Virus record (IMG/VR): IMGVR_UViG_3300045988_171958 | Coordinates: 192,001 to 256,000 of that record | Strand: one strand, 5' to 3' | From: a virus | DNA length: 64,000 nt | Shown here: piece by piece, positions 505 to 60,569 of the stretch | How the letters are laid out: each line of letters opens with the position of its first letter | Numbering within the stretch: position 1 is the stretch's first letter | Program-made: the position numbers and the translations under genes | The notes under the pieces: generated by a model | Told to the model about the DNA's origin: nothing | Seen by the model: only the letters and a program-made list of their open reading frames with translations | Databases searched by the model: none

Positions 505-592
505 ATCCTGGAAGCGCCTGGGTCACACAGGGAGCGGAAAAATACTTAGAAGTATAAATTATAACCTAAGAAAAATTTCCACTCCCTGTGTG
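505..592 (+). repeat. conserved structured element, copy 1
   Basis: The module gaagcgcctgggtcacacagggagcggaaaa is followed by a long arm that closes with ccactccctgtgtg. It lies just after the topoisomerase stop codon. Confidence 0.8.
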
Positions 593-594
593 CA

Positions 595-635
595 TAACTT
601 TAGTTCTTGAACAGAACTGAAAGAGATGTTCATTA
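595..635 (+). repeat. about 40-nt mini-element, intergenic copy
   Basis: taactttagttcttgaacagaac-tgaaaga-gatgttcatta shares 17-nt and 11-nt identical blocks with 48169-48207. Confidence 0.75.
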
Positions 636-660
636 TTTTATGGAAATTTTTTAAATTCAT

Positions 661-6422: not shown

Positions 6423-6432
6423 ACCAAGAGTC

Positions 6433-6517
6433 CCCTGTTAAGCGCCTGGGTCACACAGGAAACGGAAAATGGTCGAGATGATAAATTATATCTCTCGACC
6501 ATTTTTATTGTTTCAGG
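6433..6517 (+). repeat. conserved structured element, copy 2
   Basis: The module ttaagcgcctgggtcacacaggaaacggaaaa is followed by the arm aaaatggtcgaga..tctcgaccatttt and a T-run. It lies just after the stop of the vWA gene. Confidence 0.8.
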
Positions 6518-6527
6518 ATTGATTTTC

Positions 6528-7211
6528 CTAGTTGCTAGCTTCACCAGTGCTCATGTCCTCGTCCCAGAAGTCACTTCTAAATGTAACTGCTAATTTTGCA
6601 GGTTCATTATCAGTATAGTTCAATGTATCAAGACCAGTAACACTTGTAATCATTGTGTCATGGAATACATAGGCTCTGTAAATTGTACCATCTCTATTAG
6701 CTTCCGCAATTCTCATTACATCAGCAACATAGTCAGCCTTCAATGTACGAGTACCATCAGCAAGGTCATAACCAAGTTTTTCCCAAGCCTTGAAGATACG
6801 GAGCAACCAAGCATCTGACTTAGAACGGATGTTCAAATTAAAGTTCACTGTAACTTCAGCATAAGTGTTATCCAATGTTGGGTTTAAGAAGCTCACATCA
6901 ACACCGAAGAATTTCTGTGAACCAGCTTGTACTGTCTTCTGCAATGCATCCAAACCAGCAACATCAGTAACTTGTTCTGTCATAGTAGCGGCATCAGCAC
7001 CAAACATACCTTGCAACTGTGTAGGAAGTGTGAATGATACTTCAAACACAGCACGGTTCATTGGATCATGACGATTAGCACCAGCCTTAGTATTCATCAA
7101 ATGAGGAAGATGTGTCTTGCCATCATGGCCACGAGAAGCAAAATCACCTGTAGTTGCAGGAACTGATCCACCCCAATAAATGTTAGGCTTATTTTCTGTT
7201 ATTTTCTGCAT
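6528..7211 (-). CDS. tail tube protein (T4 gp19-like)
   Basis: 227-aa ORF immediately downstream of the sheath gene. Its size and beta-rich composition (FEVSFTLP.., VTVNFNLNIR.., LAVTFRSDFW) fit tube proteins. Confidence 0.6.
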   Translation of the reverse strand: MQKITENKPNIYWGGSVPATTGDFASRGHDGKTHLPHLMNTKAGANRHDPMNRAVFEVSFTLPTQLQGMFGADAATMTEQVTDVAGLDALQKTVQAGSQKFFGVDVSFLNPTLDNTYAEVTVNFNLNIRSKSDAWLLRIFKAWEKLGYDLADGTRTLKADYVADVMRIAEANRDGTIYRAYVFHDTMITSVTGLDTLNYTDNEPAKLAVTFRSDFWDEDMSTGEASN

Positions 7212-7252
7212 AAAACTTTCTTATATATAAGATTTGTTATTTTCCTTAGAAT

Positions 7253-7276
7253 GAGGAAGTCCTTAAGGACTTCCTC
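7253..7276. terminator. perfect palindromic hairpin between the sheath and tube genes
   Basis: gaggaagtccTTAAggacttcctc. Confidence 0.5.
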
Positions 7277-7284
7277 AATGTATT

Positions 7285-21507: not shown

Positions 21508-21544
21508 ATTAAAATAGAAATAAAATAATTGCAATTTCAAAATA
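21508..21544 (-). promoter_or_regulatory. promoter-like box for the gp47-like operon (divergent with 21561-21592)
   Basis: The reverse complement reads attttgaaattgcaattattttatttctatttta. Confidence 0.4.
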
Positions 21545-21560
21545 TTTTATTTGTATTTAT

Positions 21561-21592
21561 TTTGAAATTTATTTTGTTTATTCTATATTTTA
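21561..21592 (+). promoter_or_regulatory. promoter-like box
   Basis: tttgaaatttattttgtttattctatatttta upstream of 21618. Confidence 0.5.
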
Positions 21593-21617
21593 TCCGAACA
21601 AAATAAATATTAAAATT

Positions 21618-22637: not shown

Positions 22638-22670
22638 TTTTGAAATTTTATAATTTTATTCTATATTTTA
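22638..22670 (+). promoter_or_regulatory. promoter-like box
   Basis: tttgaaattttataattttattctatatttta upstream of 22692. Confidence 0.5.
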
Positions 22671-22691
22671 TTCGAACAAAAATAAAATGAT

Positions 22692-26207: not shown

Positions 26208-26237
26208 TGCAGGATTCAAAAGATCCTGCATTTTTTG
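26208..26237 (+). terminator. intrinsic terminator
   Basis: tgcaggat-tcaaaag-atcctgca followed by tttttt, after the small lipoprotein ORF. Confidence 0.7.
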
Positions 26238-26268
26238 TTTGAAATTTATCTAAAGTTTACTATATTTA
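26238..26268 (+). promoter_or_regulatory. promoter-like box
   Basis: tttgaaatttatctaaagtttactatattta upstream of the rnh-like gene. Confidence 0.5.
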
Positions 26269-26303
26269 TAAAGTACAAACAAATAAATTAAATGTAGTAG
26301 ACT

Positions 26304-27391: not shown

Positions 27392-27422
27392 TTTGAAATT
27401 TTAAGAATTGGTTCTATATTTA
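27392..27422 (+). promoter_or_regulatory. promoter-like box
   Basis: tttgaaattttaagaattggttctatattta upstream of 27468. Confidence 0.5.
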
Positions 27423-27467
27423 GTATGTTAAATATTAAATGTAGAACCAATTTAAGTAATAAGTATT

Positions 27468-29172: not shown

Positions 29173-29181
29173 TTAGATTCT

Positions 29182-29268
29182 CTAGGATGGCGCCTGGGTC
29201 ACACAGGGAGCGGATAATTATGATTCAGTATATTCTATCAGTTGAGATAATTTTAACGTTTCCTAGTG
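29182..29268 (+). repeat. conserved structured element, copy 3
   Basis: ggatggcgcctgggtcacacagggagcggataatt.. About 85 nt are nearly identical to copy 4. Confidence 0.85.
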
Positions 29269-29281
29269 AATTTTACAAAAA

Positions 29282-29305
29282 GAGCTCTGACTTAAGTCAG
29301 AGCTC
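29282..29305. terminator. palindromic hairpin at a convergent junction
   Basis: gagctctgacTTAAgtcagagctc preceded by aaaaa. Confidence 0.6.
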
Positions 29306-29313
29306 ATATTGTT

Positions 29314-29589
29314 TTAAATAAACAGTACTTCATTGTAATAATCTGGATCCAAGTTGTTCTTGACATATTCCTTTGCATCCAAAAGAGATTGTGATTCATT
29401 TACACAGCCATCTCCAGCTTGTAATGTAATATCACCATTTTCGGTAAGTTCAAGATCAACATTAAAATTCTCTTTCAAAAAAGAACTTGTTTTAATTATG
29501 CTAGAATCATAATTTACTACTCTCTTTACGAAGTCTTTACATTCTTTAGTTTCAAATACTTTATCATTCTTAAATTCCATTTTAAACAT
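29314..29589 (-). CDS. hypothetical protein (91 aa)
   Basis: ATG ORF, last gene of the - strand block. Confidence 0.5.
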   Translation of the reverse strand: MFKMEFKNDKVFETKECKDFVKRVVNYDSSIIKTSSFLKENFNVDLELTENGDITLQAGDGCVNESQSLLDAKEYVKNNLDPDYYNEVLFI

Positions 29590-42676: not shown

Positions 42677-42749
42677 GGGTAAATAGCTCCAATGGTAGAG
42701 CACTAGATTGAAGATCTAGGTGTTGTTGGTTCGAATCCATCTTTACCCA
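42677..42749 (+). tRNA. tRNA-Phe (GAA)
   Basis: Hand-folded: acceptor gggtaaa/tttaccc, anticodon stem ctaga/tctag, loop ttGAAga, T-loop ttcgaat. Confidence 0.85.
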
Positions 42750-42761
42750 CAAAAATTATTT

Positions 42762-42835
42762 GGTTCTATAGCTCAGATGAATAGAGCAGGATTCTTCTAA
42801 AATCCGGGTCATGGGTTTGAATCCCATTGGAACCA
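42762..42835 (+). tRNA. tRNA-Arg (TCT)
   Basis: Acceptor ggttcta/tggaacc, D arm gctc..gagc, anticodon stem ggatt/aatcc, loop ctTCTaa. Confidence 0.85.
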
Positions 42836-42865
42836 CTAATTAAGTTCTTTGAAATATTTATTTAA

Positions 42866-42951
42866 GTTCCATTAGCTCAGTTGGTTCCGTAAGGCTAGAG
42901 AGCATCCGACTTTTAATCGGAGGGTCACGGGTTCGAGCCCCGTATGGAACA
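42866..42951 (+). tRNA. tRNA-Lys (TTT) with enlarged 21-nt D-loop
   Basis: Acceptor gttccat/atggaac, anticodon stem tccga/tcgga, loop ctTTTaa, T-loop ttcgagc, genomic CCA follows. The D-loop agttggt[tccgtaaggc]taga carries about 10 extra nt. Confidence 0.8.
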
Positions 42952-43276
42952 CCATGGTAGTCAAGAGATCTCTGCTGAGAATGAATAAAGAATGAGAAGC
43001 TCATCATCATTAACATCTGGATAATCAACAGATTTATGTGAATACCTCTGTTGGTCGTATGTAAGAGGTTTAATTTGGACAAGACCAAGAATTACATAGA
43101 CAACTTTGCATGGGCACCGGAAAAAGATCGAGAGATAATTAATGATGAATAACAAAGTTATTTAAACAAACCGTCCTAATTTGTTTGGTAACAGGTTGTT
43201 ATTGTTGAATCATATCATTGAAGTAGCTAATCAATTGAAGAAGGGAACAGCAATTGAAATACCAAATCCCTTGTAT

Positions 43277-43361
43277 GGAAGTATGGGTGAGTGGTTTAAA
43301 CCAGCACACTGCTAACGTGCCGAACCTAAAGGTTCCGAAGGTTCGAATCCTTCTGCTTCCG
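43277..43361 (+). tRNA. tRNA-Ser (GCT)
   Basis: Acceptor ggaagta/tgcttcc, loop ctGCTaa, long variable arm cgaacctaaaggttccg, T arm gaagg-ttcgaat-ccttc. Confidence 0.8.
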
Positions 43362-43377
43362 CGAGAAATTTATGATT

Positions 43378-43465
43378 GGAAGTTTGGTAGAGTTGGTTTA
43401 ATACATCAGTCTTGAAAACTGACGAACTGTAAAAAGTTCCGCAGGTTCGAATCCTGCAGCTTCCG
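43378..43465 (+). tRNA. tRNA-Ser (TGA)
   Basis: Acceptor ggaagtt/agcttcc, anticodon stem tcagt/actga, loop ctTGAaa, long variable arm, T arm gcagg-ttcgaat-cctgc. Confidence 0.85.
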
Positions 43466-43480
43466 CAAATGTATATATAA

Positions 43481-43551
43481 CTGCCATTGTCCGAGTGGTT
43501 AGGTGTAGGTCCGCAAAATCTACAACATTGGTTCGAATCCAATATGGCAGT
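43481..43551 (+). tRNA. tRNA-Cys (GCA)
   Basis: Acceptor ctgccat/atggcag, anticodon stem taggt/atcta, loop ccGCAaa (C33 is unusual), T arm attgg-ttcgaat-ccaat. The D arm is weak. Confidence 0.7.
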
Positions 43552-43558
43552 CATTACA

Positions 43559-43759
43559 TACAAGAACCAATAATGACATTGAAGTTCATTGAAAGAGATT
43601 GATACGTCGAGTGGACACCATATTCGCGATATAATGTTGCTCTCCTCAAATAGAAATATTAAGTGGATATATGCTGCAGTAAATATACCCAGTATAAGTT
43701 TTCTATGTTGTCTATAGATATCGATGGCTAAAAGGTCTATAGAAACTCTCGTTCTTGTA
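43559..43759 (+). ncRNA. candidate structured inter-tRNA RNA (between tRNA-Cys and tRNA-Val)
   Basis: 201-nt spacer closed by the 9-bp stem tacaagaac/gttcttgta. No ORF and no tRNA fold. Confidence 0.3.
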
Positions 43760-43763
43760 TTTT

Positions 43764-43838
43764 GGTTCAATAGCTCAGTTGGTTTAGAGCGTCTGTTTTA
43801 CAAGCAGAAGGTCCAAAGTTCGAATCTTTGTTGAACCA
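43764..43838 (+). tRNA. tRNA-Val (TAC)
   Basis: Acceptor ggttcaa/ttgaacc, D arm gctc..gagc, loop ttTACaa, T-loop ttcgaat. Confidence 0.85.
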
Positions 43839-43911
43839 CATAATAAACCGGAGAACTAGCAGTGCCGTGAGAATAAGATCCGATTGCAAAGTCAACCCGG
43901 TTATAGTATAT

Positions 43912-43984
43912 GCAGATGTAGCTCAATGGTTAGAGTGCTTCCTTGCCATGGAAGAAGTTGTGAGTTCGATCCTCATCATCTGCT
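43912..43984 (+). tRNA. tRNA-Gly (GCC)
   Basis: Acceptor gcagatg/catctgc, anticodon stem cttcc/ggaag, loop ttGCCat, T-loop ttcgatc. Confidence 0.85.
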
Positions 43985-43994
43985 CAATATATAT

Positions 43995-44072
43995 GCATCA
44001 GTGGTGTAGTTGGTGGTGCACATCTGGCTTCCAACCAGAAGGCTTTCGCGAGTTCGAATCTCGTCTGATGCT
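43995..44072 (+). tRNA. tRNA-Gly (TCC), 8-nt variable loop
   Basis: Acceptor gcatcag/ctgatgc, anticodon stem tctgg/ccaga, loop ctTCCaa, T arm gcgag-ttcgaat-ctcgt. Confidence 0.8.
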
Positions 44073-44079
44073 CTAATAT

Positions 44080-44167
44080 CTAGGTGTACTCTAATTGGTC
44101 AGAGCCTTGATTTGGGATCAAGTGGATACTGATAAAGTGGATGCAGGTTCGAGTCCTGTCACCTAGA
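44080..44167 (+). tRNA. tRNA-Pro (TGG) with 20-nt variable region
   Basis: Acceptor ctaggtg/cacctag, D arm ctct..agag, anticodon stem cttga/tcaag, loop ttTGGga, T arm gcagg-ttcgagt-cctgt. The variable region tggatactgataaagtggat contains a tggat direct repeat. Confidence 0.7.
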
Positions 44168-44173
44168 CTATAT

Positions 44174-44247
44174 ACACCGATCAGTCAATTGGTTTAGGCT
44201 AGCAGTCTCCAAAATTGCTAATATTGGTTCGATTCCAGTTCGGTGTG
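44174..44247 (+). tRNA. tRNA-Trp (CCA)
   Basis: Acceptor acaccga/tcggtgt, anticodon stem gcagt/attgc, loop ctCCAaa, T-loop ttcgatt, genomic CCA follows. Confidence 0.85.
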
Positions 44248-44277
44248 CCAGTGTTTAATTTTAAATGTTGTTAATAT

Positions 44278-44682
44278 ATGAGTAACATGAGAAATAGAGC
44301 TTGGAGAAGAAAGAAGACTGAATCAAAATGGAATTCTCGTTGTAAGAAGTTCATGTTTGATAGTATTTTTAGAGATGGTGATAAAGAATATTCATTCAAC
44401 ATAAGTGAAGGTAATGGCAAGAAAATCAGACGTACAATAATGATTCCTAATTTGAGAAGACCAACTTCATGGAAAGAAATGAAGAAACTTGATCCGTGGG
44501 CTAGGTTTTTGAAGAATGGTTCTGGATATCGTACTTATATATCAGACCAGATGGATGCTAAGCGAAAAGTTAAGTTGCAACGTATCAACAACAAGAAACT
44601 TATCAATGAAGGAATTCAGGAATATGATGACATATATGATGAAACTTTAGAAGATAATTTCTATCTTAATAATGTAGCATAA
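44278..44682 (+). CDS. small highly basic protein embedded in the tRNA array
   Basis: The ATG ORF has an N-terminus MSNMRNRAWRRKKTESKWNSRCKK.. and lies between tRNA-Trp and tRNA-His. Confidence 0.55.
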   Translation: MSNMRNRAWRRKKTESKWNSRCKKFMFDSIFRDGDKEYSFNISEGNGKKIRRTIMIPNLRRPTSWKEMKKLDPWARFLKNGSGYRTYISDQMDAKRKVKLQRINNKKLINEGIQEYDDIYDETLEDNFYLNNVA

Positions 44683-44693
44683 ATTATGTACAT

Positions 44694-44766
44694 GGGTTCT
44701 TTCGTTCAATGGTAGGACAGGAGGTTGTGGTTCTCCTTATTAGAGTTCGATTCTCTAAGGAACCCC
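44694..44766 (+). tRNA. tRNA-His (GTG)
   Basis: Acceptor gggttct/ggaaccc, anticodon stem ggagg/tctcc, loop ttGTGgt, T-loop ttcgatt. Confidence 0.8.
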
Positions 44767-45149
44767 AAACGTGATCAGAATATACTGGTGATTGGACAAA
44801 AACAATGTAGCTGAGAAGAGTAATGCAATAATACGCGTAAATAATTGCATGAAACATATAATAAGCGCGGATGAAAAAAGCCTTACCTATGGCCGCCTCC
44901 CTACATTTGTATTTTGAATGTCAATGAAACAATAAGTATAAGGTTTGGTAACGCTTATTAAATTAATTGGTTCATTCAAGTTCACTATGCAGTCTGGGCT
45001 TTATAGAGCCTTGTAGTTTAAAGCATCGTAAAACATTCTGGTTATAAGAGAATATATCACCCAAGCGAATTGTCATGAGATTCGTACACCTGCTTAAGAT
45101 GGTTGAATTATGTGGGAAGTAATTCTATAAAATAGGGCATGCCCACAAT

Positions 45150-45223
45150 GGCGTAATAGCTCAGTTGATTAGAGCGCATCATTCATGCTGATGAGGTCGT
45201 TGGTTTGAGTCCATCTTACGCCA
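45150..45223 (+). tRNA. tRNA with CAT anticodon (Met or Ile2; identity not resolvable by eye)
   Basis: Acceptor ggcgtaa/ttacgcc, D arm gctc..gagc, anticodon stem catca/tgatg, loop ttCATgc. Confidence 0.8.
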
Positions 45224-45303
45224 CAGCTTAAACGGACCGAACTTAGTCTTTTATGCATCTTTTCTCTAGGGTAAGGTGTTAAACACCAAAAGAAAAGGCA
45301 CCA

Positions 45304-45386
45304 GGGAATATGCTGTAATTGGTAGCCAGGCCAGACTTAGGATCTGGTGCTTCAATAGCGTGTGGGTTCGAGTCCCACTATTCCCA
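45304..45386 (+). tRNA. tRNA-Leu (TAG)
   Basis: Acceptor gggaata/tattccc, anticodon stem ccaga/tctgg, loop ctTAGga, long variable arm, T arm gtggg-ttcgagt-cccac. Confidence 0.85.
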
Positions 45387-45649
45387 CAATCGTTGAAGTA
45401 ATGTAGTTTATGAAAGTCTAACATTAGTAATGGAAACCTAATGGCCCTCTATGTTATCCTAAAGAGAATAAAGTACGATTAGTAAATGAGTTATGGATCT
45501 GTTTAAACAGATCGCTTCAGAACTTCTAAAGAAGTCAGTAAGTTAGATGAAACCACCATAATATAATATCTGGATAACTATATGTATGGATAGGAATGAA
45601 GTTTTAGGTGCAGACACCGGTAGCGTCACCTTTTGTAATTCCTAGTATT

Positions 45650-45735
45650 GCTCCGATGTTGGAATTGGTAGACAAGATGGACTTAAAATCCATTGGTCAG
45701 TGATGACCGTACGGGTTCGATCCCCGTTCGGAGTA
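45650..45735 (+). tRNA. tRNA-Leu (TAA)
   Basis: Acceptor gctccga/tcggagt (G1.U72), anticodon stem atgga/tccat, loop ctTAAaa, variable arm tggtcagtgatgaccgt, T-loop ttcgatc. Confidence 0.8.
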
Positions 45736-45736
45736 C

Positions 45737-45904
45737 AAATTGATAGCAATCCTGAATAGAGAAGGAAGAAAGACGAGTTATGAAGGTAAGTATGCTTAAA
45801 GCTGCACGTATAATGCAGTGCATACCAAGGATAAATAACTAAAACACACCATATAAACTCTACACGAAGGTCTGATGCAGGAAGTGCGCACTTGCTATCA
45901 ATTT
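45737..45904 (+). ncRNA. candidate structured inter-tRNA RNA (between tRNA-Leu TAA and tRNA-Leu CAA)
   Basis: 168-nt spacer closed by the perfect 13-bp stem aaattgatagcaa/ttgctatcaattt. Nested inside are the helices gtatgc..gcatac and ctgca..tgcag. Confidence 0.35.
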
Positions 45905-45913
45905 ATTTTTATT

Positions 45914-45997
45914 GCTTTCATGGCGGAATTGGTAGACGCAACTGTCTCAAAAACAGCTGATAGAAATATCATGAAGGTTCGAGTCCTTCTGGAAGTA
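45914..45997 (+). tRNA. tRNA-Leu (CAA)
   Basis: Acceptor gctttca/tggaagt (with G.U pairs), loop ctCAAaa, variable arm tgatagaaatatcat, T arm gaagg-ttcgagt-ccttc. Confidence 0.75.
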
Positions 45998-46031
45998 CTT
46001 ATTATTCAATTAAACAATTATTTTATTTTAC

Positions 46032-47033
46032 ATGAGATTACCTTTGGTGCCACTTTCAGAATGGGTATTGAATAGACAGAATGAATTTGAATTAAAATTA
46101 TTTGAATCATTCAGACAAGAATTCAATATAAGAGACAATGAAGAATTTAATATTTGTGAAAGATATGGGTCTTATGATGGACAAATGAAATTCTGTAGAG
46201 ACTTTGCAACAATGTTGTCAGAAGACATACAAGACAATCTTAATATGACTGATTTTAGATATGACTTAAATAAAGAAGAAATTAAAGATTATTATAAAGG
46301 ATTGTTTTTTGACAATATTCACTTGATATGTAATACAATGTGTCAGACAGGATATCAAGCAAGAAAATCTGAATATAATCCAAAAACCCTTACATTTAAA
46401 GATGTATATATCTATATAAACATCAAGGAATACAATAAAGAAAAGGACATTACTGTTGCACTTACTCATGAGCTTACACATGCTTATGATGATTGGAACA
46501 GACACTCAAAAGAAGGAGTTGAAACATTACTTGATATTGAGAAAAACACAGGATATGATAAATTAATTGATAAGATAAAGTCAAGTGATTTCAATGAAAA
46601 GATTGCATCTGAAATGATTTATACATTCACTTCAGTAGAAAAGAATGCTTACATGTCAGAATTGACCGCTGAAATAGAAAGTATAGGGGAAAAAATCAAA
46701 GATTATACATATATGGATGCGTTAAAAATATTTAAGAATTCAGATACATGGAAAAGATTCAATCAATTCAAAGAATATTTTATGTTGATGAATAATGAAG
46801 AAAAGAAAGTATTGTGTGATGTATACAGAGAAATAAAGAAATCAAGCAATACAGACAATAAGATATTAAAACAATTGAAATATGATATACAAGAAACATT
46901 TGATAAGATGTGTACTATCATACCAAAGATTTACTATTATTACAAAGAAAAGTATTCAAATAAAGAAATAAAGAAAGAAAAAGTAAGTGAATCAAGATTA
47001 AATAGAATAAAGAAAAGATTTAACATAATTTAA
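46032..47033 (+). CDS. hypothetical HExxH protein embedded in the tRNA array
   Basis: The ATG ORF contains a zinc-metallopeptidase-like HELTH motif (ALTHELTHAYDDW). Confidence 0.55.
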   Translation: MRLPLVPLSEWVLNRQNEFELKLFESFRQEFNIRDNEEFNICERYGSYDGQMKFCRDFATMLSEDIQDNLNMTDFRYDLNKEEIKDYYKGLFFDNIHLICNTMCQTGYQARKSEYNPKTLTFKDVYIYINIKEYNKEKDITVALTHELTHAYDDWNRHSKEGVETLLDIEKNTGYDKLIDKIKSSDFNEKIASEMIYTFTSVEKNAYMSELTAEIESIGEKIKDYTYMDALKIFKNSDTWKRFNQFKEYFMLMNNEEKKVLCDVYREIKKSSNTDNKILKQLKYDIQETFDKMCTIIPKIYYYYKEKYSNKEIKKEKVSESRLNRIKKRFNII

Positions 47034-47096
47034 CTAAATAATATTGTCCACTTTACTATTTATATATTATATTTAAATGAATAAATGAATAAAACA

Positions 47097-47210
47097 ATGA
47101 GAACTATCACAAATACATATTATCAAATAATTGATGAACAGGCCATTGATAATCAACGAATGGTTTGCTCTTGTTTTGGTATATGTGAAAGTGATGAGAT
47201 TGACTTTTAA
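47097..47210 (+). CDS. possible small protein (37 aa, MRTITNTYYQIIDEQ..CSCFGICESDEIDF)
   Basis: Short ATG ORF not in the track, followed by a hairpin/T-run at 47254-47286. Confidence 0.25.
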   Translation: MRTITNTYYQIIDEQAIDNQRMVCSCFGICESDEIDF

Positions 47211-47253
47211 ATACGTCCTCCACTGTTTAAACATTCAACAATACAATCAAGAC

Positions 47254-47286
47254 AAGAGCAATACAGAAATGTGTTGCTCTTTGTTG
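47254..47286 (+). terminator. hairpin + T-rich tail
   Basis: aagagcaa-tacagaaatgtg-ttgctctt followed by tgttg. Confidence 0.4.
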
Positions 47287-47358
47287 ATTTAGCTTCAGCT
47301 GTACTGAAGCATGAAGTACTAAAAAAGTTGATAAAAAATGAAAATTTTTTGAAAGATC

Positions 47359-47390
47359 TTTGAAATACTGATAAATCAAATCTATATTAT
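47359..47390 (+). promoter_or_regulatory. promoter-like box
   Basis: tttgaaatactgataaatcaaatctatattat upstream of 47435 and the second tRNA sub-cluster. Confidence 0.45.
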
Positions 47391-47434
47391 ATATGTAAGT
47401 TATATAAAATATCACATTTAAAATTATAATTATT

Positions 47435-47656
47435 ATGACAAGATTAGAATCAAACATTAAGATATTGAATATTATAAAGCAACTTGCCTATATGTTTCCA
47501 GATATGAGATTCATTCAGTTGCTTACAACTGTTGATGCAATTCTTGGTACTGATCAGTTCTATGAGGAATCGGAAGTTACATTGAATAGAATCAAAGAGA
47601 AAATTGAATATCAACAAAGAAGATATGGTAAGTTGACTGATATTGATATTAATTAG
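47435..47656 (+). CDS. hypothetical protein (73 aa)
   Basis: ATG ORF downstream of a promoter-like box within the tRNA region. Confidence 0.5.
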   Translation: MTRLESNIKILNIIKQLAYMFPDMRFIQLLTTVDAILGTDQFYEESEVTLNRIKEKIEYQQRRYGKLTDIDIN

Positions 47657-47666
47657 ATAATATAAA

Positions 47667-47741
47667 TGGCGCGTTCGACAAGTGGCCTAAGTCGCCAGTT
47701 TTTCACGCTGGTATTCACCGGTTCGAATCCGGTACGCGCTA
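47667..47741 (+). tRNA. tRNA-Glu (TTC)
   Basis: Acceptor ggcgcgt/acgcgct, anticodon stem ccagt/gctgg, loop ttTTCac, T arm accgg-ttcgaat-ccggt. Confidence 0.8.
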
Positions 47742-47752
47742 CGATAAATATT

Positions 47753-47835
47753 GGGTAGATAGATAAGTGGTTAAAATGGTTTGACTGTAAATCAAATGGC
47801 TTCGGCCTTCGGGAGTTCGAATCTCTCTCTGCCCA
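47753..47835 (+). tRNA. tRNA-Tyr (GTA)
   Basis: Acceptor gggtaga/tctgccc, anticodon stem tttga/tcaaa, loop ctGTAaa, long variable arm (bacterial type II Tyr), T-loop ttcgaat. Confidence 0.85.
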
Positions 47836-47984
47836 CCGGGTCAAAAGAGCAAATGATAATCATGACAAAGTGATGTGTGAACAATTTAGATATAATCAAC
47901 GCTTTACGTTGCTTGCAACTAAAGTTATTGTGAAAGCCACATAGGAGATTGATGTGCAGCTAACTGAGACTTTAATCAGTATTT

Positions 47985-48061
47985 GGAGTATTAAGCCCTG
48001 TTGGTAAGGGAACTAGACTGTCACTCTAGTAAAACTAAGGGTTCGAGTCCCTTATGCTCCG
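47985..48061 (+). tRNA. tRNA-Asp (GTC)
   Basis: Acceptor ggagtat/atgctcc, anticodon stem ctaga/tctag, loop ctGTCac, T arm aaggg-ttcgagt-ccctt. Confidence 0.85.
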
Positions 48062-48070
48062 CAAATAGAT

Positions 48071-48142
48071 TGGACTATGGTGTAACTGGAAACACTACAG
48101 ATTTTGGTTCTGTCATTCGGAGTTCGAACCTCCGTGGTCCAA
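48071..48142 (+). tRNA. tRNA-Gln (TTG)
   Basis: Acceptor tggacta/tggtcca (U1-A72, as in bacterial tRNA-Gln), anticodon stem acaga/tctgt, loop ttTTGgt, T arm cggag-ttcgaac-ctccg. Confidence 0.85.
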
Positions 48143-48148
48143 CAATTT

Positions 48149-48259
48149 AGGTGGTTATATCAGTTGGTTAACTTAGTTCTTGAACAGAACATAAGTGATG
48201 TTCATTAGATAGCTTGCCTGATAAGCAAGAGGTCATAGGTTCAAGTCCTATATCACCTA
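48149..48259 (+). tRNA. tRNA-Ile (GAT) interrupted by a 36-nt insertion in the D-loop
   Basis: Acceptor aggtggt/atcacct, D stem tatc/gata, canonical D-loop agttggttaa followed by a 36-nt insert, anticodon stem cttgc/gcaag, loop ctGATaa, T arm atagg-ttcaagt-cctat. Removing the insert restores a normal 75-nt tRNA. Confidence 0.7.
48169..48207 (+). repeat. about 40-nt mini-element, copy inside the tRNA-Ile(GAT) D-loop
   Basis: taacttagttcttgaacagaac-ataagt-gatgttcatta. Confidence 0.75.
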
Positions 48260-48267
48260 CAAGATTC

Positions 48268-48300
48268 TTTGAAATTTTGGATATAGTTATTCTATATTTA
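48268..48300 (+). promoter_or_regulatory. promoter-like box inside the tRNA array
   Basis: tttgaaattttggatatagttattctatattta upstream of tRNA-Ile(TAT) and the endonuclease gene. Confidence 0.5.
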
Positions 48301-48312
48301 ATATAAATAAAT

Positions 48313-48386
48313 ACTCCAGTAACTCAGTTGGTTAGAGTGCTCGGCTTATACCCAAGTGGTCGGGGGTTCAAGTCCCTCCTGGAGTA
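48313..48386 (+). tRNA. tRNA-Ile (TAT)
   Basis: Acceptor actccag/ctggagt, D arm actc..gagt, anticodon stem ctcgg/ccaag (one C-A mismatch), loop ctTATac, T arm cgggg-ttcaagt-ccctc. Confidence 0.7.
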
Positions 48387-48397
48387 CTATTAAATGT

Positions 48398-49021
48398 ATG
48401 GATTTAATAAAAAGTTATGCAAGTAAATGTTGTACAGGGCAAAAGAAAATAGCTTATTGTGTAGATTGTGGGAAAGAACTTATAATTTATAAAAGAGCTT
48501 CTTCAAAAACTTGTAGATGTGATAATTGCAGAAAAAACCGCATTAGACAAAAAAGACTACAATATAGATTAAATTTTTTAAATAATGATTATGAAATTCA
48601 TTTTGGTAGAAAATATTCAAAAGAAAGCTGGCTAGCATTACATAATGGTGGTTGTAAAGGAATACAACATCAAGGTGATTTAAGACGTAGTAAAAATGAA
48701 ATAGAATTTTGTAAATTATGTGAAGAATATTTTAATAATGTTAAACATAATGAATGTATATTTAATGGATGGGATGCAGATATAATAATAGAAGATATAA
48801 AATTCGCGGTATTATGGAATGGTCCATGGCATTATAAACAAATTACGAAATCTCATTCAGTTAAGCAAATACAAAATAGGGATAAAATAAAGATAAAAGA
48901 AATTAAAGAATCTGGTTGGACACCTTATATTATAAAAGATATGGGTAAGGCAAATAAAGATTTTGTTAAAGAAAAATTTGATGAATTCTTGAAATATTTA
49001 AAAGAAAATACTATTATTTAA
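48398..49021 (+). mobile_element. homing-endonuclease-like gene (zinc ribbon + Vsr/PD-(D/E)XK-like domain) inside the tRNA array
   Basis: I set the start at ATG 48398 because the track ORF start lies inside tRNA-Ile. Motifs are CVDCGK..CRCDNC and WDADIIIEDIKFAVLWNGPWHY. Confidence 0.6.
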
Positions 49022-49037
49022 ATAGTTAATTATATAT

Positions 49038-49119
49038 CGTGGGTGAGTGAAACGGATATTTATAAATCACGTCGGTCTCATAAGCCGTACAATAGTGGGT
49101 TCGACTCCCACACCCATCA
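49038..49119 (+). tRNA. second CAT-anticodon tRNA (Met/fMet/Ile2-like) with 16-nt D-loop and 1:72 mismatch
   Basis: Acceptor cgtgggt/acccatc (C1xC72), D stem gtga/tcac, loop ctCATaa, T arm gtggg-ttcgact-cccac. Confidence 0.6.
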
Positions 49120-49143
49120 CTAACAAAGAAATTCTAAACTTAA

Positions 49144-49216
49144 GGATCGATAGCTCAGTTGGTAGAGCAACTTGCTGTTAACAAGAAGGTCGTCAGTTCG
49201 AATCTGGCTCGGTCCG
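49144..49216 (+). tRNA. tRNA-Asn (GTT)
   Basis: Acceptor ggatcga/tcggtcc, D arm gctc..gagc, loop ctGTTaa, T-loop ttcgaat. Confidence 0.85.
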
Positions 49217-49413
49217 CAAACGGCAACGATTATTTAGAGGCGGCTTAACTGCTACTCGAATGTGATATGGGTTGGATAATCACCAACATGGTCAAGGACA
49301 TGCACACTTCTTGATATTGACGCGACAAAACAAGATGAAGCCTAATATTACGGTGAAAGTCGAACTCTTTCTTGAATTCATCCTCTTTGTCAATTGATAG
49401 AATCCTTGAATTT

Positions 49414-49488
49414 GGGGTCAATAGCTCAGTTGACTAGAGCACTTGATTTGCATTCAAAAGGTCCAGGGTTTGAATCCCTGTGGCTCCA
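49414..49488 (+). tRNA. tRNA-Ala (TGC)
   Basis: Acceptor ggggtca/tggctcc including the G3.U70 Ala identity pair, loop ttTGCat, T arm caggg-tttgaat-ccctg. Confidence 0.85.
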
Positions 49489-49630
49489 CAAGTAATAGAG
49501 AGGACCTAGCATTTAACTAGGTGGTTGTTAGAGGTGTCAGTGCAATCTACAGGTACTCCTGATAGCTCAATGTATTACGAGAATATGGTCATGATAGTTT
49601 GCACATCTGATGCCATATTTGATTTTATAT

Positions 49631-49703
49631 GCCATTATAGCTCAATTGGTAGAGCATCTGTCTTGTAAACAGAAGGTTATCGGATCATACCCGGTTAATG
49701 GCT
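49631..49703 (+). tRNA. tRNA-Thr (TGT), non-canonical T-loop
   Basis: Acceptor gccatta/taatggc, anticodon stem tctgt/acaga, loop ctTGTaa, T-loop atcatac (A54 instead of T54). Confidence 0.75.
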
Positions 49704-51269: not shown

Positions 51270-51713
51270 ATGGACTTTTCTAAAATGACTGTATATATAA
51301 AGAAAGCAATAAAAGGTAATTTCTTCAGTAAGCTCATTCAACAGAATTCAGGATATAGCAGCAAAAGCTTCTTTCTAGTTGTTGTTACATTCATAGGTAC
51401 TCTACTGCTTGCTGTACCAATATTCTCTCTTACTATAGAAGCTTGGTACAACCATACTATAACTACTGACTTGACAGCAATGGCAGCTTATATAACAGCA
51501 GTAGCAGCTGTATTCACATCAGTAGGTCTTACAAAAGTGTGGTCAGAAAAATATGAGCATAAACTTCCTGGTCCTGATGGAAAATTTGGAACAAATGATG
51601 ATATTATCATAAATGTTACAGATGAAGAATATAATAAAATATTAGATGTAATGAATAAGCAATGCAATCACCAGGATGGCGGCTGGGATGGCCAGGGAGC
51701 GGATAATTGCTAA
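51270..51713 (+). CDS. membrane protein (two predicted TM helices)
   Basis: Hydrophobic segments FFLVVVTFIGTLLLAVPIFSLTI and AAYITAVAAVFTSVGLT. The last 15 codons lie inside copy 5 of the conserved structured element. Confidence 0.55.
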   Translation: MDFSKMTVYIKKAIKGNFFSKLIQQNSGYSSKSFFLVVVTFIGTLLLAVPIFSLTIEAWYNHTITTDLTAMAAYITAVAAVFTSVGLTKVWSEKYEHKLPGPDGKFGTNDDIIINVTDEEYNKILDVMNKQCNHQDGGWDGQGADNC

Positions 51714-51757
51714 TAAGTATAATTTATCAGATGACCAAATTATCCGCCATCCTGGTG
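51669..51757 (+). repeat. conserved structured element, copy 5 (diverged, overlaps CDS end)
   Basis: ggatggcggctgggatggccagggagcggataatt.. It is closed by the perfect 14-bp stem caccaggatggcgg/ccgccatcctggtg. Confidence 0.75.
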
Positions 51758-51781
51758 AATATTTTATATCAAGAACTGAAG

Positions 51782-54580
51782 TTAGTTGAATTGCCTGAAT
51801 CTAGCTCTCAATGGATCTTGGTTATATTGTCCAGGCATATCATATATGCTTGGTTCATTTCCATATCCATTAGGTGATCCATAGAAATCATTCATAGATG
51901 GCAATCCTTGTTGCATACCTGTATTGTACATTGTATACATGTTAGGTATACTGGTACTTGCATTACTTTGTGTTTCTCTATATATACTAGAAGATTCTGC
52001 AGCAGCAGTAGGTAAATTTCTGTTATCCAATGATACTGTTATCTGTTTCTCTTCTTTCTTCTTTTGCAATACATTAGACATCATATCTGCTATCTTCTTA
52101 AGCATATCTAGTTTCTTCATTTCTGATTCTTCCTTTTCTATTTGTTCCCATTGTCCAGTAGCTTTCATCTCTATCTCCCACTCTTCCATGAAATCTTTAT
52201 ATTTTGTAGTATTCTTAAGAAGTGGAAGTTGTACAAAAGTCATTATCAAATCATCATGGCCGTATGCAGCAGCATAACTGCCATTTCCATTCTTATCTTC
52301 AAAATTCTCAAGCTCTGAAACAGTAAGCAAGTCTGTTATTATGACATCAAACTTCTCTAACATCATCTTAAGCAATGCACATGCAGATATCTTAGTAGCA
52401 TGACTCAATCTGATACCTGGAATTGTCTTGCTGTTTTTGAATCCATTCAAATTAGCAATATTGTCTTCTTGACTGCCTTTCTTGTATCTTATCAAATTAG
52501 CCAAGTCAAATTCACCTAATGGATTTACTTGCCATCTCCAACTTGCCTCTGGCATATATTCAGGTTCATTCAAATTCTTAAGATAGTTGTAGAATAAAGC
52601 ACCATAAGTATTCCATTCTACTGACACTATAGTCTTATTAGGATTGAATAACTGTCCATACAATACCCAGAACTCTAAGCTAGCTTGTTCCAAATCTATA
52701 GTATTGCAATGCCAATATCCTATTTGTTCAAACTTATCTTTTCCTATTACTTCTATTATGTTGAATGTTGTAAAGTCATTACCACCACCTTCTGCTAAGT
52801 CAACTAATATGATGAACCATCCAATCTTCAAATAATGCAAGTCATAATCTTTCTTGAACTTAAATTCTGTCTTATGTAAGCTGAAATACCAACTATCATC
52901 TGTAGGTGTCTCAAACAAGTAAGTCAAGTCTCTTATCTTTCCTAAGCATTCTCTTGATACAAGACATTTATCAGATGCAGAGAATTGTGTACCATATTGA
53001 TAGTAGAAAGCTTCTTCTGAACCTAAGACACCAACCATCATAGCTTTCCAAGCATTATCTCTCTTCTTCCAAATATGATTGTCAGGATCCCATTGAGGAA
53101 CTTGCCACCAATCTACTTTAAATGGAGCATACATAGACTTTCCTGTTTCTGCGGCATGCCATAGCTTATAGAACAAATTGAATCCATTTTGTGTTGACAT
53201 GATACATATATTAGAGCTTGTATCTGCAGTAACAGTAGGAAGAATGTTGTTGTAGAACAATTCAACATCATTAGGTGGACACCAAGCAAACTCATCAAGT
53301 ATCAAGAAGTTTATTGTCTTACCAAGACCGGCAGTAGGAGAGAAAGCTTCAGTAGATATTGTAGAGTTGTTGTCAAAAGCTATCTCTGACTGATTCCACT
53401 TCAAAGTACCAAGCTTCAGATGGTAAGGAAGATACAGATACATATCTTTTATCTTCTTTATCAAATCTTGTCCTGCTGGACCAGACTTAGAAAGTATCAA
53501 TGCATTTCTATCATTTCTGAACAATACTGACCAAAGACAGAATATTGCTGTAGTTGTTGAGTTGTGACTCAATATTCCATTAGTATAATATCTGTGATAA
53601 GGATGTTCTACTGAAACATCACACATAGATACTTTTGTTTTAGATACTGAAACAGACTTTACCATAGATGGTCCTCTATCTGTCATTATTTTAGATAGGT
53701 TTTCAACAAGTTTATCAGCATATATTATATCTAAGTTTTCATCAAACAACATGTGTTTGTCTGCACATTCTATAGAATACCCATTTTCAAGGATTACCTT
53801 ATATATTGCAAATGGCTTAGTATTGTAAATGTATGATATTGGTTGATATCCAACATCTGTCAATACTTTTATCCTATATTCAGAAATATCTATTTCTTTA
53901 GTGGTTTTACAGTTATCTAAAAGTTCCTTATGAAATACAAAATTGTATTCTAACCAATCAACAACTTCTACTGCTTTATAGTTTTCTTTTTTATATAGAT
54001 AATATTTCAGTTTCCAGAAAGCAGAGTTATCAAACAAGTTTTGAAATTCATAAAAAGGCAATTCAAACAAATAGTCAGATCCACTTTTTACATATTTGAA
54101 ATTCTTAAAAAGATATGTGAATTTTTGTTTACCAAACTGAATACCATAATTGTTTATGAATGCATTAGTAAACAAAAACTTCACCGTTGTATTTTGTAAA
54201 AGGCACTTTCCACTTTGTCTGCAACTTAAAAACAGGCTGAATCTGTTTTGTTGAAGATGTCTCATGTAATCTTCCTGATAGTCACGGAGTATTACTGGTT
54301 GCAAACCAGTTGGGGTCATAAGATAGCATTTGGTAGCAAAGTACAATGGATCTTCCATACAATGCATATAATCTTCTATCTCTTCTTGTGTACGCTTGAA
54401 GACCAGATCTGGCTTCAATAACTTAGTATTCTTACCAATAAAAGGGTTTGCTTTCAATGGCAAACCCTTCTTCATAGCATCTACAGCTTTCTCAAGTACT
54501 GAACAGCTCCAGATAACTGCTTCTGCCTCTTTTCCTCCTTTATCTCTCTTTACTGGATCAAATTCAAATTCTTTAGCCAT
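51782..54580 (-). CDS. terminase large subunit (T4 gp17-like) interrupted by an intein
   Basis: The Walker A motif is split as ..LSCRQSGK / intein / STTTAIF... Downstream ATPase and nuclease regions (FLILDEFAW, ..) are present. Confidence 0.85.
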   Translation of the reverse strand: MAKEFEFDPVKRDKGGKEAEAVIWSCSVLEKAVDAMKKGLPLKANPFIGKNTKLLKPDLVFKRTQEEIEDYMHCMEDPLYFATKCYLMTPTGLQPVILRDYQEDYMRHLQQNRFSLFLSCRQSGKCLLQNTTVKFLFTNAFINNYGIQFGKQKFTYLFKNFKYVKSGSDYLFELPFYEFQNLFDNSAFWKLKYYLYKKENYKAVEVVDWLEYNFVFHKELLDNCKTTKEIDISEYRIKVLTDVGYQPISYIYNTKPFAIYKVILENGYSIECADKHMLFDENLDIIYADKLVENLSKIMTDRGPSMVKSVSVSKTKVSMCDVSVEHPYHRYYTNGILSHNSTTTAIFCLWSVLFRNDRNALILSKSGPAGQDLIKKIKDMYLYLPYHLKLGTLKWNQSEIAFDNNSTISTEAFSPTAGLGKTINFLILDEFAWCPPNDVELFYNNILPTVTADTSSNICIMSTQNGFNLFYKLWHAAETGKSMYAPFKVDWWQVPQWDPDNHIWKKRDNAWKAMMVGVLGSEEAFYYQYGTQFSASDKCLVSRECLGKIRDLTYLFETPTDDSWYFSLHKTEFKFKKDYDLHYLKIGWFIILVDLAEGGGNDFTTFNIIEVIGKDKFEQIGYWHCNTIDLEQASLEFWVLYGQLFNPNKTIVSVEWNTYGALFYNYLKNLNEPEYMPEASWRWQVNPLGEFDLANLIRYKKGSQEDNIANLNGFKNSKTIPGIRLSHATKISACALLKMMLEKFDVIITDLLTVSELENFEDKNGNGSYAAAYGHDDLIMTFVQLPLLKNTTKYKDFMEEWEIEMKATGQWEQIEKEESEMKKLDMLKKIADMMSNVLQKKKEEKQITVSLDNRNLPTAAAESSSIYRETQSNASTSIPNMYTMYNTGMQQGLPSMNDFYGSPNGYGNEPSIYDMPGQYNQDPLRARFRQFN
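53561..54205 (-). mobile_element. intein (215 aa) inserted in the TerL Walker A motif
   Basis: It starts with Cys right after SGK (CLLQNTTV), has a block B-like GYSIECADKHMLF, a block F/G-like VSMCDVSVEHPYHRYYTNGILSHN, and is followed by Ser+1. Excision restores RQSGKSTTT. Confidence 0.8.
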
Positions 54581-58837: not shown

Positions 58838-59734
58838 ATGAGTGGAAATTTATTTCAACAAGGAAAATATAAAGCAGAACCTATCAAATCAGAAGTAGCA
58901 CCATTATTACAACAATTAGTGATAAAAGAATTGTTAGATAATTATCCTGATATGGAATACTGTTGCATTGGATCCATAGGTAAGAAGAAAGATGGAGAAT
59001 ATAATGGAGATATAGATATTGCTATAAAAACAGAAAGTATAGAAGAACTAGAAAATATGATAACCAAAGTATTCTCTTATACAGAAAGTGTTACAAGCAA
59101 ATCTTATTTCATAGTATCTATGCTTTATCCTTATAAGGACCCATTAGATGATGACAAGCTAAAGTTTGCTGCAGTTGACTTTATGATGATGAAAGACAAA
59201 GAATACACTGAATTCAGATATTACTGTCCTGATTATAGAAAAGATGAGTCAAAGTATAAAGTTGGTGTAAAGATAATGTGGGCAAATACTATATTGAACC
59301 ATACAAAAGAGAGATTGAATGGAGTAGATTTGTCAAAGAACCAAATGGGTTCATTCAGATTTGTACCAACTGGATTATATCAAACGATATTCAATGTTGA
59401 TACATTTGAAGTAATATCAAACAAATTCATTACAACAAATGTTGATGAAATAGTAAATATGGTTTTTGATGATAGTGATAGAAGTCATTTCAACTCAGTA
59501 GAAACCTTATGGGAAGGTATTCATTCAGAACATTATAAATATCCAGAAGAAGTAAAAATTCTAGAAGCTAGATTGATGATAAATAGCTATAGAAAGGGAT
59601 GGAAAGAGATTATAGATTCAGGAGATTTCAAAATGAAATATTGGACTAAAGAAGATATTTATAAGATGATAGAACCTTATAAATTGGAAAGAAACATAAA
59701 CAAATATTTAGATGTAAAGAATGGAATCCTATAG
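58838..59734 (+). CDS. Pol-beta superfamily nucleotidyltransferase-like protein
   Basis: I moved the start to ATG 58838. The minimal NTase motif hG(G/S)x9-13Dh(D/E)h is present as CIGSIGKKKDGEYNGDIDIAI. Confidence 0.5.
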   Translation: MSGNLFQQGKYKAEPIKSEVAPLLQQLVIKELLDNYPDMEYCCIGSIGKKKDGEYNGDIDIAIKTESIEELENMITKVFSYTESVTSKSYFIVSMLYPYKDPLDDDKLKFAAVDFMMMKDKEYTEFRYYCPDYRKDESKYKVGVKIMWANTILNHTKERLNGVDLSKNQMGSFRFVPTGLYQTIFNVDTFEVISNKFITTNVDEIVNMVFDDSDRSHFNSVETLWEGIHSEHYKYPEEVKILEARLMINSYRKGWKEIIDSGDFKMKYWTKEDIYKMIEPYKLERNINKYLDVKNGIL

Positions 59735-59744
59735 GATTCCATTC
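59719..59744. terminator. bidirectional terminator
   Basis: gaatggaatcctataggattccattc followed by ttttt. It overlaps the 3' end of the NTase-like gene and is convergent with 59754-60482. Confidence 0.65.
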
Positions 59745-59753
59745 TTTTTGTAT

Positions 59754-60482: not shown

Positions 60483-60569
60483 TATGAATTTTTGTTTATA
60501 TAAACTTTATAAATAATAATAAGTTTTTTGAAATTTTTTATGTTTGTTCTAAATTTATTTGCAACAAGA

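Follow-up and report, generated by a model that had tools for sequence, protein, structure and literature searches.

The subject of this work is a family of structured intergenic elements, each about 100 nt long, found in a window of 64,000 nucleotides of viral DNA (IMG/VR virus record IMGVR_UViG_3300045988_171958, positions 192,001 to 256,000). The phage encodes a tail sheath, a tail tube, a major capsid protein, a portal, TerL, an SbcC-like protein and 25 tRNA genes, a gene content that predicts a jumbo myovirus. Similar DNA was not found among 50,697 deposited phage genomes, which hold no close relative, and the capsid protein shares no more than 36% identity with its counterparts in the PAU-, pT24- and Lak-type huge phages. 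Transcription in uncultured gut jumbo phages is, to our knowledge, almost unknown; a conserved element at the boundaries of gene blocks that is simple to recognise provides a handle on operon structure and a defined RNA for study.

Forty-nine members of the family were used to build a covariance model, which was run over the window with filters off. Exactly five full-length sense (+ strand) matches were obtained, at 64-99 bits; the runner-up sense match scored 10 bits, and the minus-strand matches were partial mirror images of the hairpins. An earlier account made from the letters alone (the sequence-only reading) had described a five-copy family on the + strand, and this description is borne out. 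The 28-nt module conserved in the family was located at 514-541 and 29190-29217 without mismatches, at 61065-61092 with one mismatch and at 6442-6469 with two, the chance expectation being zero; copy 4 (51669-51757) carries the diverged variant GGCGGCTGGGATGGCCAGGGAGCGGATAA in a gap-free alignment to the family. All five sites had been placed correctly, but the real start of the element lies about 5-12 nt further upstream and includes a conserved (G/A)TTC-YC(C/T)AGG segment.

The family extends well beyond the window. Scans with exact and degenerate patterns, followed by the removal of chance matches in G+C-rich DNA, identified at least 112 distinct copies, whose alignment spans 117 columns and needs one gap. 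About 10-15 copies are present per genome in related phage contigs of 167-292 kb. The family was found in eight IMG/VR contigs of 167-283 kb from one sample, in metagenomic contigs from the human gut that reach 292 kb, and in contigs assigned by binning to 'uncultured Romboutsia' metagenome-assembled genomes (MAGs). By their flanks, the 112 copies fall into 27 locus groups, some of which represent the same locus with different flanking modules. The sequence-only reading had proposed a comparison with Rfam. A scan of the window with Rfam 15 at the gathering threshold reported only the 25 tRNAs, and at E<=10 the surroundings of copies 1, 4 and 5 and of the second-clade element L222 returned microRNA and small nucleolar RNA hairpin noise far below threshold, with no match to a described family, the self-cleaving ribozymes (hammerhead, twister, twister-sister, pistol, hatchet and HDV-like) included. 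The elements are a genuine family of structured intergenic repeats that was previously uncatalogued.

All members share a common plan: a short 5' hairpin (CCAGG-N6-CCTGG), whose loop contains an invariant G, then a hairpin of about 70 nt and usually a T run. In the alignment we distinguish the segments U (columns 10-20), M5' (GCGCCTGGG), M (TCACACAGGGAGCGGA) and D (CGTCCCTGTGTGA), followed by a tail; between M and D lies a variable arm with the A/T-rich apex (A)GTATA(A/T)(A/T)T..AT (TATAAATTATA). Minimum-energy folds assign 80 of the 112 copies to type A, in which D pairs with M to form a hairpin of about 72 nt, in many copies preceded by a small hairpin of U with M5' (CCAGG/CTAGG-N6-CCTGG). 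In type B (24 of 112, copy 4 included), D pairs instead with U, the fold becomes a three-way junction, and the copies end in inverted repeats of 15 bp that match perfectly. In copy 2 and the L068/L109 type, the T run comes after a strong inner hairpin instead. Closing stems measure 11-15 bp, and folding is more stable than for shuffled sequence (z about -4.2). When the stacked stems are added up, types c1, c2, c4 and L109 reach about 25-30 bp; the arm that occurs most often is weaker.

Each of the five copies in the window can be described in these terms. Copy 1 (type A, 501-599, 86.6 bits, with orthologues in locus group 5) begins with the 5' segment GTTCATCCTGGAAG (501-514) and the conserved GCGCCTGGG (514-522), and its closing stem pairs 523-534 (TCACACAGGGAG) with 582-593 (CTCCCTGTGTGC) around the apex AGTATAAATTATAAC (551-565). 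Copy 2 (6429-6527, 64.1 bits, orthologues L098, L172, L173 and L189) has the module GCGCCTGGGTCACACAGGAAACGGA and a strong inner hairpin, 6466-6479 with 6490-6505, closed by the loop GATAAATTAT. In copy 3 (type A, 29177-29275, 92 bits, clade-2 orthologue L216:8313-8411) the 5' hairpin pairs CTAGG (29182-29186) with CCTGG (29193-29197), one U-G pair included, and the closing stem, M at 29199-29210 with GTTTCCTAGTGA at 29258-29269, is weakened and depends on G-U pairs; the tail is ATTTTAC. Copy 4 (type B, a three-way junction at 51666-51764, 71.4 bits, clade-2 orthologue L222/L196) consists of an outer stem (51668-51682 with 51744-51758), a side hairpin with a hypervariable loop (CTGG 51683-51686 with CCAG 51692-51695), an inner arm (51699-51708 with 51738-51747) and the tail ATATTTTAT; the open reading frame (ORF) upstream of it, 51270-51713, overlaps the element by 48 nt. 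Copy 5 (type A, 61052-61150, 98.6 bits, locus group 10) has the alpha 5' variant TTCTCCTGTTAAG, a closing stem of 61074-61085 with 61133-61144 (GTCCCTGTGTGA) and the tail ATGTTTTTG. The T runs in the window are T4 in copies 3 and 4, T5 in copy 5 and, in copy 2, a run after the inner hairpin.

Three of these copies had been placed at convergent junctions, rightly so: copy 2 faces a tail-tube-like gene (6528-7211, minus strand), copy 3 a minus-strand ORF of 91 aa, and copy 4 the TerL gene (51782-54580, minus strand). The 3' strand of every copy was also thought to pair back onto the CACACAGGGAG part of the module. This pairing has covariation support, but copies 2 and 4 depart from it. The 3' strand of copy 4, CCGCCATCCTGGTGA, is perfectly complementary to the upstream strand TCACCAGGATGGCGG and not to the module, and that of copy 2 is degenerate, with the strong inner hairpin and TTTTTATTGTTT in its place. 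The strand CGTCCCTGTGTG that had been attributed to copy 4 belongs to copy 5, the 3' strands of the two having been swapped.

A second clade of phages was reached through TerL. A 148-kb contig (G+C 37-39%) encodes a TerL 75% identical to that of the window, and there the counterpart of the small gene that precedes copy 4 is followed by a related element, again convergent with terL; among TerL relatives at 55-62% identity, no element was found downstream of terL. The clade-2 version is present in multiple copies within its own clade. Its consensus, AGATG(A/C)CGCCAGGAGTCGCTGGGCG-CCGCTGGCGGCC-GCGAAAT...TATAAATTATAT...ATTTT.AA-GGCCGCCAGCG-TCA(A/T)TTT, folds likewise, with a 5' hairpin CCAG-N6-CTGG and a long hairpin directly after it. 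Across the clades the closing stem is entirely different yet complementary, TCACACAGGGAG/CTCCCTGTGTGA in clade 1 and CGCTGGCGGCC/GGCCGCCAGCG in clade 2, and is thus fully compensated, while sequence is preserved in the 5' hairpin, the GCG..GAAAT segment and the apex. The similarity of the apex between copies, which had been noted within the window, is therefore genuine and is kept even in the second clade. The separate fold that had been drawn for the module, CCTG-GGTCACA-CAGG, is not retained there, the middle pair being replaced by T opposite T.

In the 49 sequences from both clades, 79.8% of cells are paired in the 5' hairpin and closing stem, compared with 29-54% when the partners are slid. 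The covariation of these helices (0.253, versus 0.141 in shuffles) was reached by 0/500 shuffles, and six of their base pairs have changed on both sides. Compensated variants also occur within clade 1: the stem variant TCACACAGGCAACTT / AAGTTGCCTGTGTGA in L102, a replacement of G39-C92 by U-A in L175 and L178, and a replacement of A-T by C-G in the type B stem of L075. Homologous elements, which the sequence-only reading had proposed to look for in related contigs, are thus present there, with covariation of the closing stem above that of shuffles.

That reading had also listed a small ribozyme among the possible identities of the element. We regard it as highly improbable that the copies are a ribozyme that cleaves itself, or small RNA genes in their own right. 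Small RNA genes would suit the position of the T run, which is on the strand of the element even at antisense loci, and the TATAAT-like hexamers that adjoin the 5' end at groups 15 and 23. Against this, most copies start within 1-9 nt of a stop codon and share no promoter, Rfam returned no ribozyme or small RNA match, and the wholesale replacement of paired sequences between the clades leaves few candidates for a catalytic core.

Which strand is under selection can be approached from the substitutions and folds. One-sided changes in the helices are mainly to G-U on the sense strand, and in 88 of 112 copies, as at 23 of 27 loci, folding is more stable for the sense strand than for the antisense strand. 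Both strands fold far more stably than shuffled sequence, and the excess of the sense strand after dinucleotide shuffles is modest (-12.6 versus -11.0 kcal/mol, p=0.03). Because of the G-U bias and the greater stability of the sense fold, there is moderate evidence that selection acts on the sense-strand RNA.

Seventy-two of the 112 copies follow a co-directional gene, usually 1-9 nt past its stop codon, and 21 of these 72 face a convergent gene; the overall orientation bias relative to genes is about 3:1. A T run (at least four T within 14 nt past the stem) follows the element at 18 of 27 loci, compared with 8.4% of random positions, and the mean number of T in the 14 nt after the stem is 8.2 against a background of 4.8. 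A promoter-like motif, TTGAAA-N15-19-TAnnnT, was identified 18-67 nt downstream of the element at 11 of 27 loci, and six of the 27 reach 10/12 positions of the promoter consensus; the motif is absent at convergent and inverted loci. Nine of the 11 loci with the motif also have the T run, the exceptions being groups 5 and 8. At two sense loci where the next gene begins about 30 nt downstream with no promoter, the T run is missing, and locus groups 0 and 4 lie inside operons. The T run thus tracks the transcription map. Downstream of copy 1, the motif takes the form TTGAAA-N16-TATTTT (662-689, + strand) and precedes the gene at 708-971.

With moderate confidence, we interpret the family as regulatory hairpin cassettes that would act as sense RNA, most likely to end or insulate transcripts, with terminator function where a U run follows. 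Termination, stabilisation of mRNA and roles for the 5' hairpin and the apex are what we infer from these data. Transcripts of the upstream gene would fold into the long hairpin; at the ends of transcription units and at convergent junctions the U run would cause RNA polymerase to terminate, and the stable hairpin at the new 3' end would protect the mRNA that precedes it. An element that has no U run or is inverted, as inside operons, would be no more than a neutralised or structural intercistronic hairpin. Recombination or gene conversion would keep the copies of one genome alike, and the copies would in turn serve as recombination substrates and joints, in the manner of the promoter-early stem-loop (PeSL) cassettes discussed below. 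The proposal of the sequence-only reading that the element is a specialised terminator or 3'-end signal is, given the frequency of the T run, a reasonable one. The copies resemble intrinsic terminators in their G+C-rich closing stem, in the U run at two thirds of loci and in their position just past stop codons, at unit ends or convergent junctions. They differ from them in forming a family of conserved sequence, with an extra 5' hairpin and a very long interior.

The elements are not plain terminators everywhere, and several observations weigh against the cassette interpretation. A proper T run is missing at nine of the 27 loci, and the tail of copy 1, CATAACTTTAG, is without one. Twenty-three of the 112 copies (about 20%) run antisense to both of the co-directional genes that flank them, yet the T run is kept on the strand of the element, and one antisense locus is common to both clades; the retention of such inverted copies is not explained by the cassette model. 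The rule that every copy stands at the 3' end of a + strand gene block, as had been stated for the window, accordingly fails across the family, and is broken as well by some sense copies inside operons that have no T run. An ordinary terminator (29277-29316, outside the family, AAAAAGAGCTCTGAC-TTAA-GTCAGAGCTC) lies directly after copy 3. The T5 run of copy 5 stands directly before a + strand gene (start at 61200) with no promoter motif ahead of it, a further arrangement for which the model does not account. Finally, the conserved 5' hairpin, the GCG..GAAAT segment and the apex are not explained by termination; their conservation weighs against a plain terminator because intrinsic terminators need no conserved sequence.

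Palindromic terminator-like hairpins with TTAA or TATA loops were observed at 7252-7277, 29277-29316, 59716-59747 and 62901-62934. They are perfect, carry A and T runs on their flanks, are often bidirectional, and are each unique in sequence. The sequence-only reading had set the family apart from such palindromes, and the distinction holds.

The features that the cassette model leaves aside would find a place in a conditional terminator (attenuator), in which a trans-acting factor bound to the 5' module would choose between the U:M or U:M5' helix and the M:D helix, and read-through into genes that lie downstream or converge on the element would be timed in the course of infection. We consider this possible but doubtful, and hold as tentatively its fuller form, in which the 5' hairpin with its loop, and perhaps the apex, would be read by a phage or host factor so that all of the approximately 10-15 block boundaries of a genome are gated together. 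In predicted folds, RNA truncated before D pairs U with M in 58 of 110 clade-1 copies (a mean of 4.0 pairs, versus 2.3 with U shuffled), and a perfect helix of 8 bp, GCCGCCAG/CTGGCGGC, is its counterpart in clade 2. The layout of the segments recalls the 1:2, 2:3 and 3:4 helices of classical attenuators. As in the RAT (ribonucleic antiterminator)-terminator arrangements of BglG/SacY and the PyrR attenuator, the conserved module of about 28 nt overlaps the 5' strand of the terminator and exclusive helices can be drawn; unlike them, the family lies after genes and not in 5' leaders. The conserved 5' hairpin, the invariant loop G and the uniformity of the copies in each genome fit recognition by one factor, copy 5 precedes a promoterless gene, and the presence of ordinary terminators in the same genome means that a second class invites a special role.

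The alternative helix itself, however, argues against such a switch. Although 70% of its cells are paired, compared with at most 51% when slid, the covariation of U:M (0.113) is close to that of shuffles (0.099), and slides of +2 and -2 do equally well. The switch-like behaviour suggested earlier is therefore still a hypothesis: alternative pairings exist, U:M5' and U:M being better ones than that originally drawn, but the covariation of U:M does not rise above controls. Type B copies have no U:M option, the full-length fold prefers the terminator helix in most copies, and at many loci a promoter right after the element makes regulated read-through needless. No candidate factor was identified, and the flanking genes have no function recognisable with PHROG or Pfam, where no functional theme emerged. 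The conditional-terminator model stays alive because the conserved 5' hairpin and apex, the inverted copies and copy 5 are not explained by the cassette model. If it is true, it would explain why each genome has one stem sequence and why the copies change together between clades; should the module bind a factor, the elements would represent a new regulatory system.

The shape of the hairpin also brings processing by an enzyme of the RNase III type into consideration. Early mRNAs of phage T7 and of Bacillus phage SP82 carry conserved intercistronic hairpins at which RNase III processes them, and such sites offer a precedent here. According to studies cited in PMC4838370, host RNase III cleaves conserved phage sites. 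Cleavage within the long, irregular hairpin would part the cistrons, and the upstream one would keep a protective 3' stem. The hairpin has a base of 12 bp, then an internal loop and an upper arm, with about 25-30 bp stacked, whereas such a site calls for some 20 bp or more of irregular double-stranded RNA. Positions between genes, also inside operons where there is no T run, fit this explanation, and an inverted element still forms a hairpin (z about -3.6); as in T7 and SP82, several similar hairpins stand between phage genes and would leave a 3' stem on the upstream RNA. The enrichment of T runs, however, favours termination over processing, pairing in the upper arm of the commonest variant is poor, and a single-stranded 5' module and a conserved apex would be atypical determinants; the T7 and SP82 sites have neither of these, nor an association with T runs. 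We judge this explanation improbable.

The age of the family was assessed from the positions of the clade-2 copies. At least 6 of 10 occupy junctions orthologous to those of clade-1 copies, on the same side and strand of flanking proteins that are 50-80% identical; among them are the junctions of copies 2, 3 and 4, together with an antisense locus. Because they occupy orthologous junctions, the elements are older than the split of the clades and have been retained since; such retention speaks against junk DNA or a mobile element that spread recently. All copies of one clade share one stem sequence, which is different in the other clade. Since the stem is uniform within and different between clades, the family has undergone concerted evolution within each clade, either through gene conversion or because the copies co-evolved with a shared reader. 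It offers a clean natural case of this process, in which the closing stem was replaced and the position, the 5' hairpin and the apex were kept. Orthologous loci swap arms and 5' variants, and loop variants are shared between loci.

The side hairpin of type B offers an observation of the same kind. Its 5-nt loop (51688-51692 in copy 4, and the orthologues L046-L057, L072, L073, L097, L143 and L156) varies among near-identical orthologues as ATGGC, ATGCT, ATGGT, ATGCG, ATGGG and GCGGT, and the variants recur at locus group 15, which suggests patchy gene conversion or locally raised mutation.

Rearrangements are also found at the elements. The clade-2 copy L215:512-610 has on its two sides the orthologues of a 617-aa gene, which in the window precedes copy 2, and of a 422-aa gene, which follows copy 5; because it unites the neighbourhoods of two clade-1 copies, it marks a genome rearrangement with its joint at the element. 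A 470-bp indel adjoins an element. At many loci (e.g. L005, L009, L077 and L082), elements are flanked by a second kind of repeat that also forms a hairpin, module X (TAATGAACATCACTTACAGWTCTGTTCAAGAACTTAAG), in direct orientation upstream and inverted downstream of them, sometimes in tandem; in the window it is present as the reverse complement ACTTTAGTTCTTGAACAGAACTGAAAGAGATGTTCATTA at 596-640 (+ strand), next to copy 1.

Such mosaicism would be expected of a selfish or structural DNA repeat without an RNA function of its own, related in kind to miniature inverted-repeat transposable elements (MITEs), repetitive extragenic palindromes (REPs) and bacterial interspersed mosaic elements (BIMEs), or of a recombination hotspot, with the likeness of copies maintained through gene conversion or by a cognate enzyme that binds DNA at the inverted repeats. 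The perfect terminal inverted repeats of type B, the occurrence of copies in both orientations relative to genes, the modular loci with module X, the rearrangement and indel joints and the joint change of the stem sequence in all copies of a genome speak for this view. Short, palindromic, modular and mosaic intergenic repeats of this sort, found in either orientation, include the REPs of E. coli, the Correia elements of Neisseria and the pneumococcal BOX and RUP elements, and they are known to stabilise upstream mRNA or to terminate transcription. In the family described here, however, neither target-site duplications nor empty sites were found among 108 flank pairs and close relatives, no cognate transposase or REP-associated tyrosine transposase (RAYT) was seen, and the elements reside in a phage genome of virulent type, where they were retained at orthologous junctions despite the divergence of the flanking proteins. 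The G-U bias of the sense strand, the T run on the element's own strand with its correlation to unit ends, and the orientation bias likewise run counter to a purely DNA-level repeat, and we think it unlikely.

For the cassette interpretation, the closest known analogue would seem to be the PeSL cassettes of T4-type myoviruses (PMC2839356, PMC4122927). Both are conserved intergenic motifs of about 100 bp with many copies in a large myovirus genome; both contain a stem-loop, which in the PeSL cassettes acts as terminator or attenuator, often beside an early promoter. PeSL cassettes are found at indel or rearrangement joints as substrates of homologous recombination, a role that is proposed for the present family, some copies of which lie at such joints. 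There is no sequence similarity between them, and what is conserved here is the hairpin with its 5' hairpin module and not a promoter, which lies downstream as a motif at about 11 of 27 loci. The hairpin is also far longer (about 70 nt) and branched in some copies, and the family is kept at orthologous junctions between clades, whereas PeSL cassettes are concentrated around ORFans in hyperplastic regions. If the module binds no factor, the concept of cassettes that drive modular shuffling would extend to distant myoviruses.

Several other functions were considered for the elements and rejected. The gap-free alignment and an alternation of ATG and TAA at one column had raised the idea of a small peptide, but the frame is open in just 18 of 112 copies and most have one to six stops. 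CCWGG sites, as targets of restriction-modification, are not depleted (51 in the window, compared with about 27 expected by our own calculation), and the counts of Chi (AGCGG) sites are unremarkable. A T4-like late promoter in the apex (TATAAATA) was dismissed, as the motif is missing upstream of the structural genes. An inverton was rejected because the orientation of the apex is constant in all copies and the antisense model matches are merely partial mirror images. Resemblances to ANTAR hexaloops, the PyrR binding loop, T7 primase sites and the tetraloop receptor may exist, but no weight is placed on them.

The promoter-like motif downstream of the elements is a relaxed form of a TTTG..N19..TAtaTTT motif that recurs upstream of + strand genes. 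Sites of the form TTTG(AAAT)-N19-TAtaTTT(t) were noted at 650-704, 21540-21617, 22640-22691, 26230-26303, 27400-27467 and 60560-60631, and the sequence ahead of start codons is A-rich and lacks a Shine-Dalgarno. We take the motif to resemble the -33/-7 promoters of Bacteroidota; because of this resemblance, the host may belong to the Bacteroidota and the 'Romboutsia' labels of the MAGs may be a binning artefact.

Some further features of the window deserve mention. Next to copy 1, the final ~20 codons of a topoisomerase II-like ORF (6-437, ...DVYINDLQSLKQSLLKDFK) are repeated as a 21-codon ORF at 435-499 (MIQVYINDLQSLRKSILLDIR); related genomes have a single such ending, and the repeated ending (380-499) has the look of a scar left by recombination at the element. 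A D12-class N6-adenine DNA methyltransferase (1380-2306, + strand) is encoded in the block that follows copy 1. The 25 tRNA genes are clustered at 42677-49703 (+ strand), with small ORFs between them. The TerL ORF (51782-54580) encodes 932 aa, whereas relatives of 55-75% identity (L196-L210) cover the same residues in about 590-710 aa, and L195 spans 3991 nt for them. Pfam gave a weak Terminase_6N match alone (residues 341-481). From these lengths, terL of this clade is suggested to hold one or more insertions, possibly an intein, an intron or an inserted domain.

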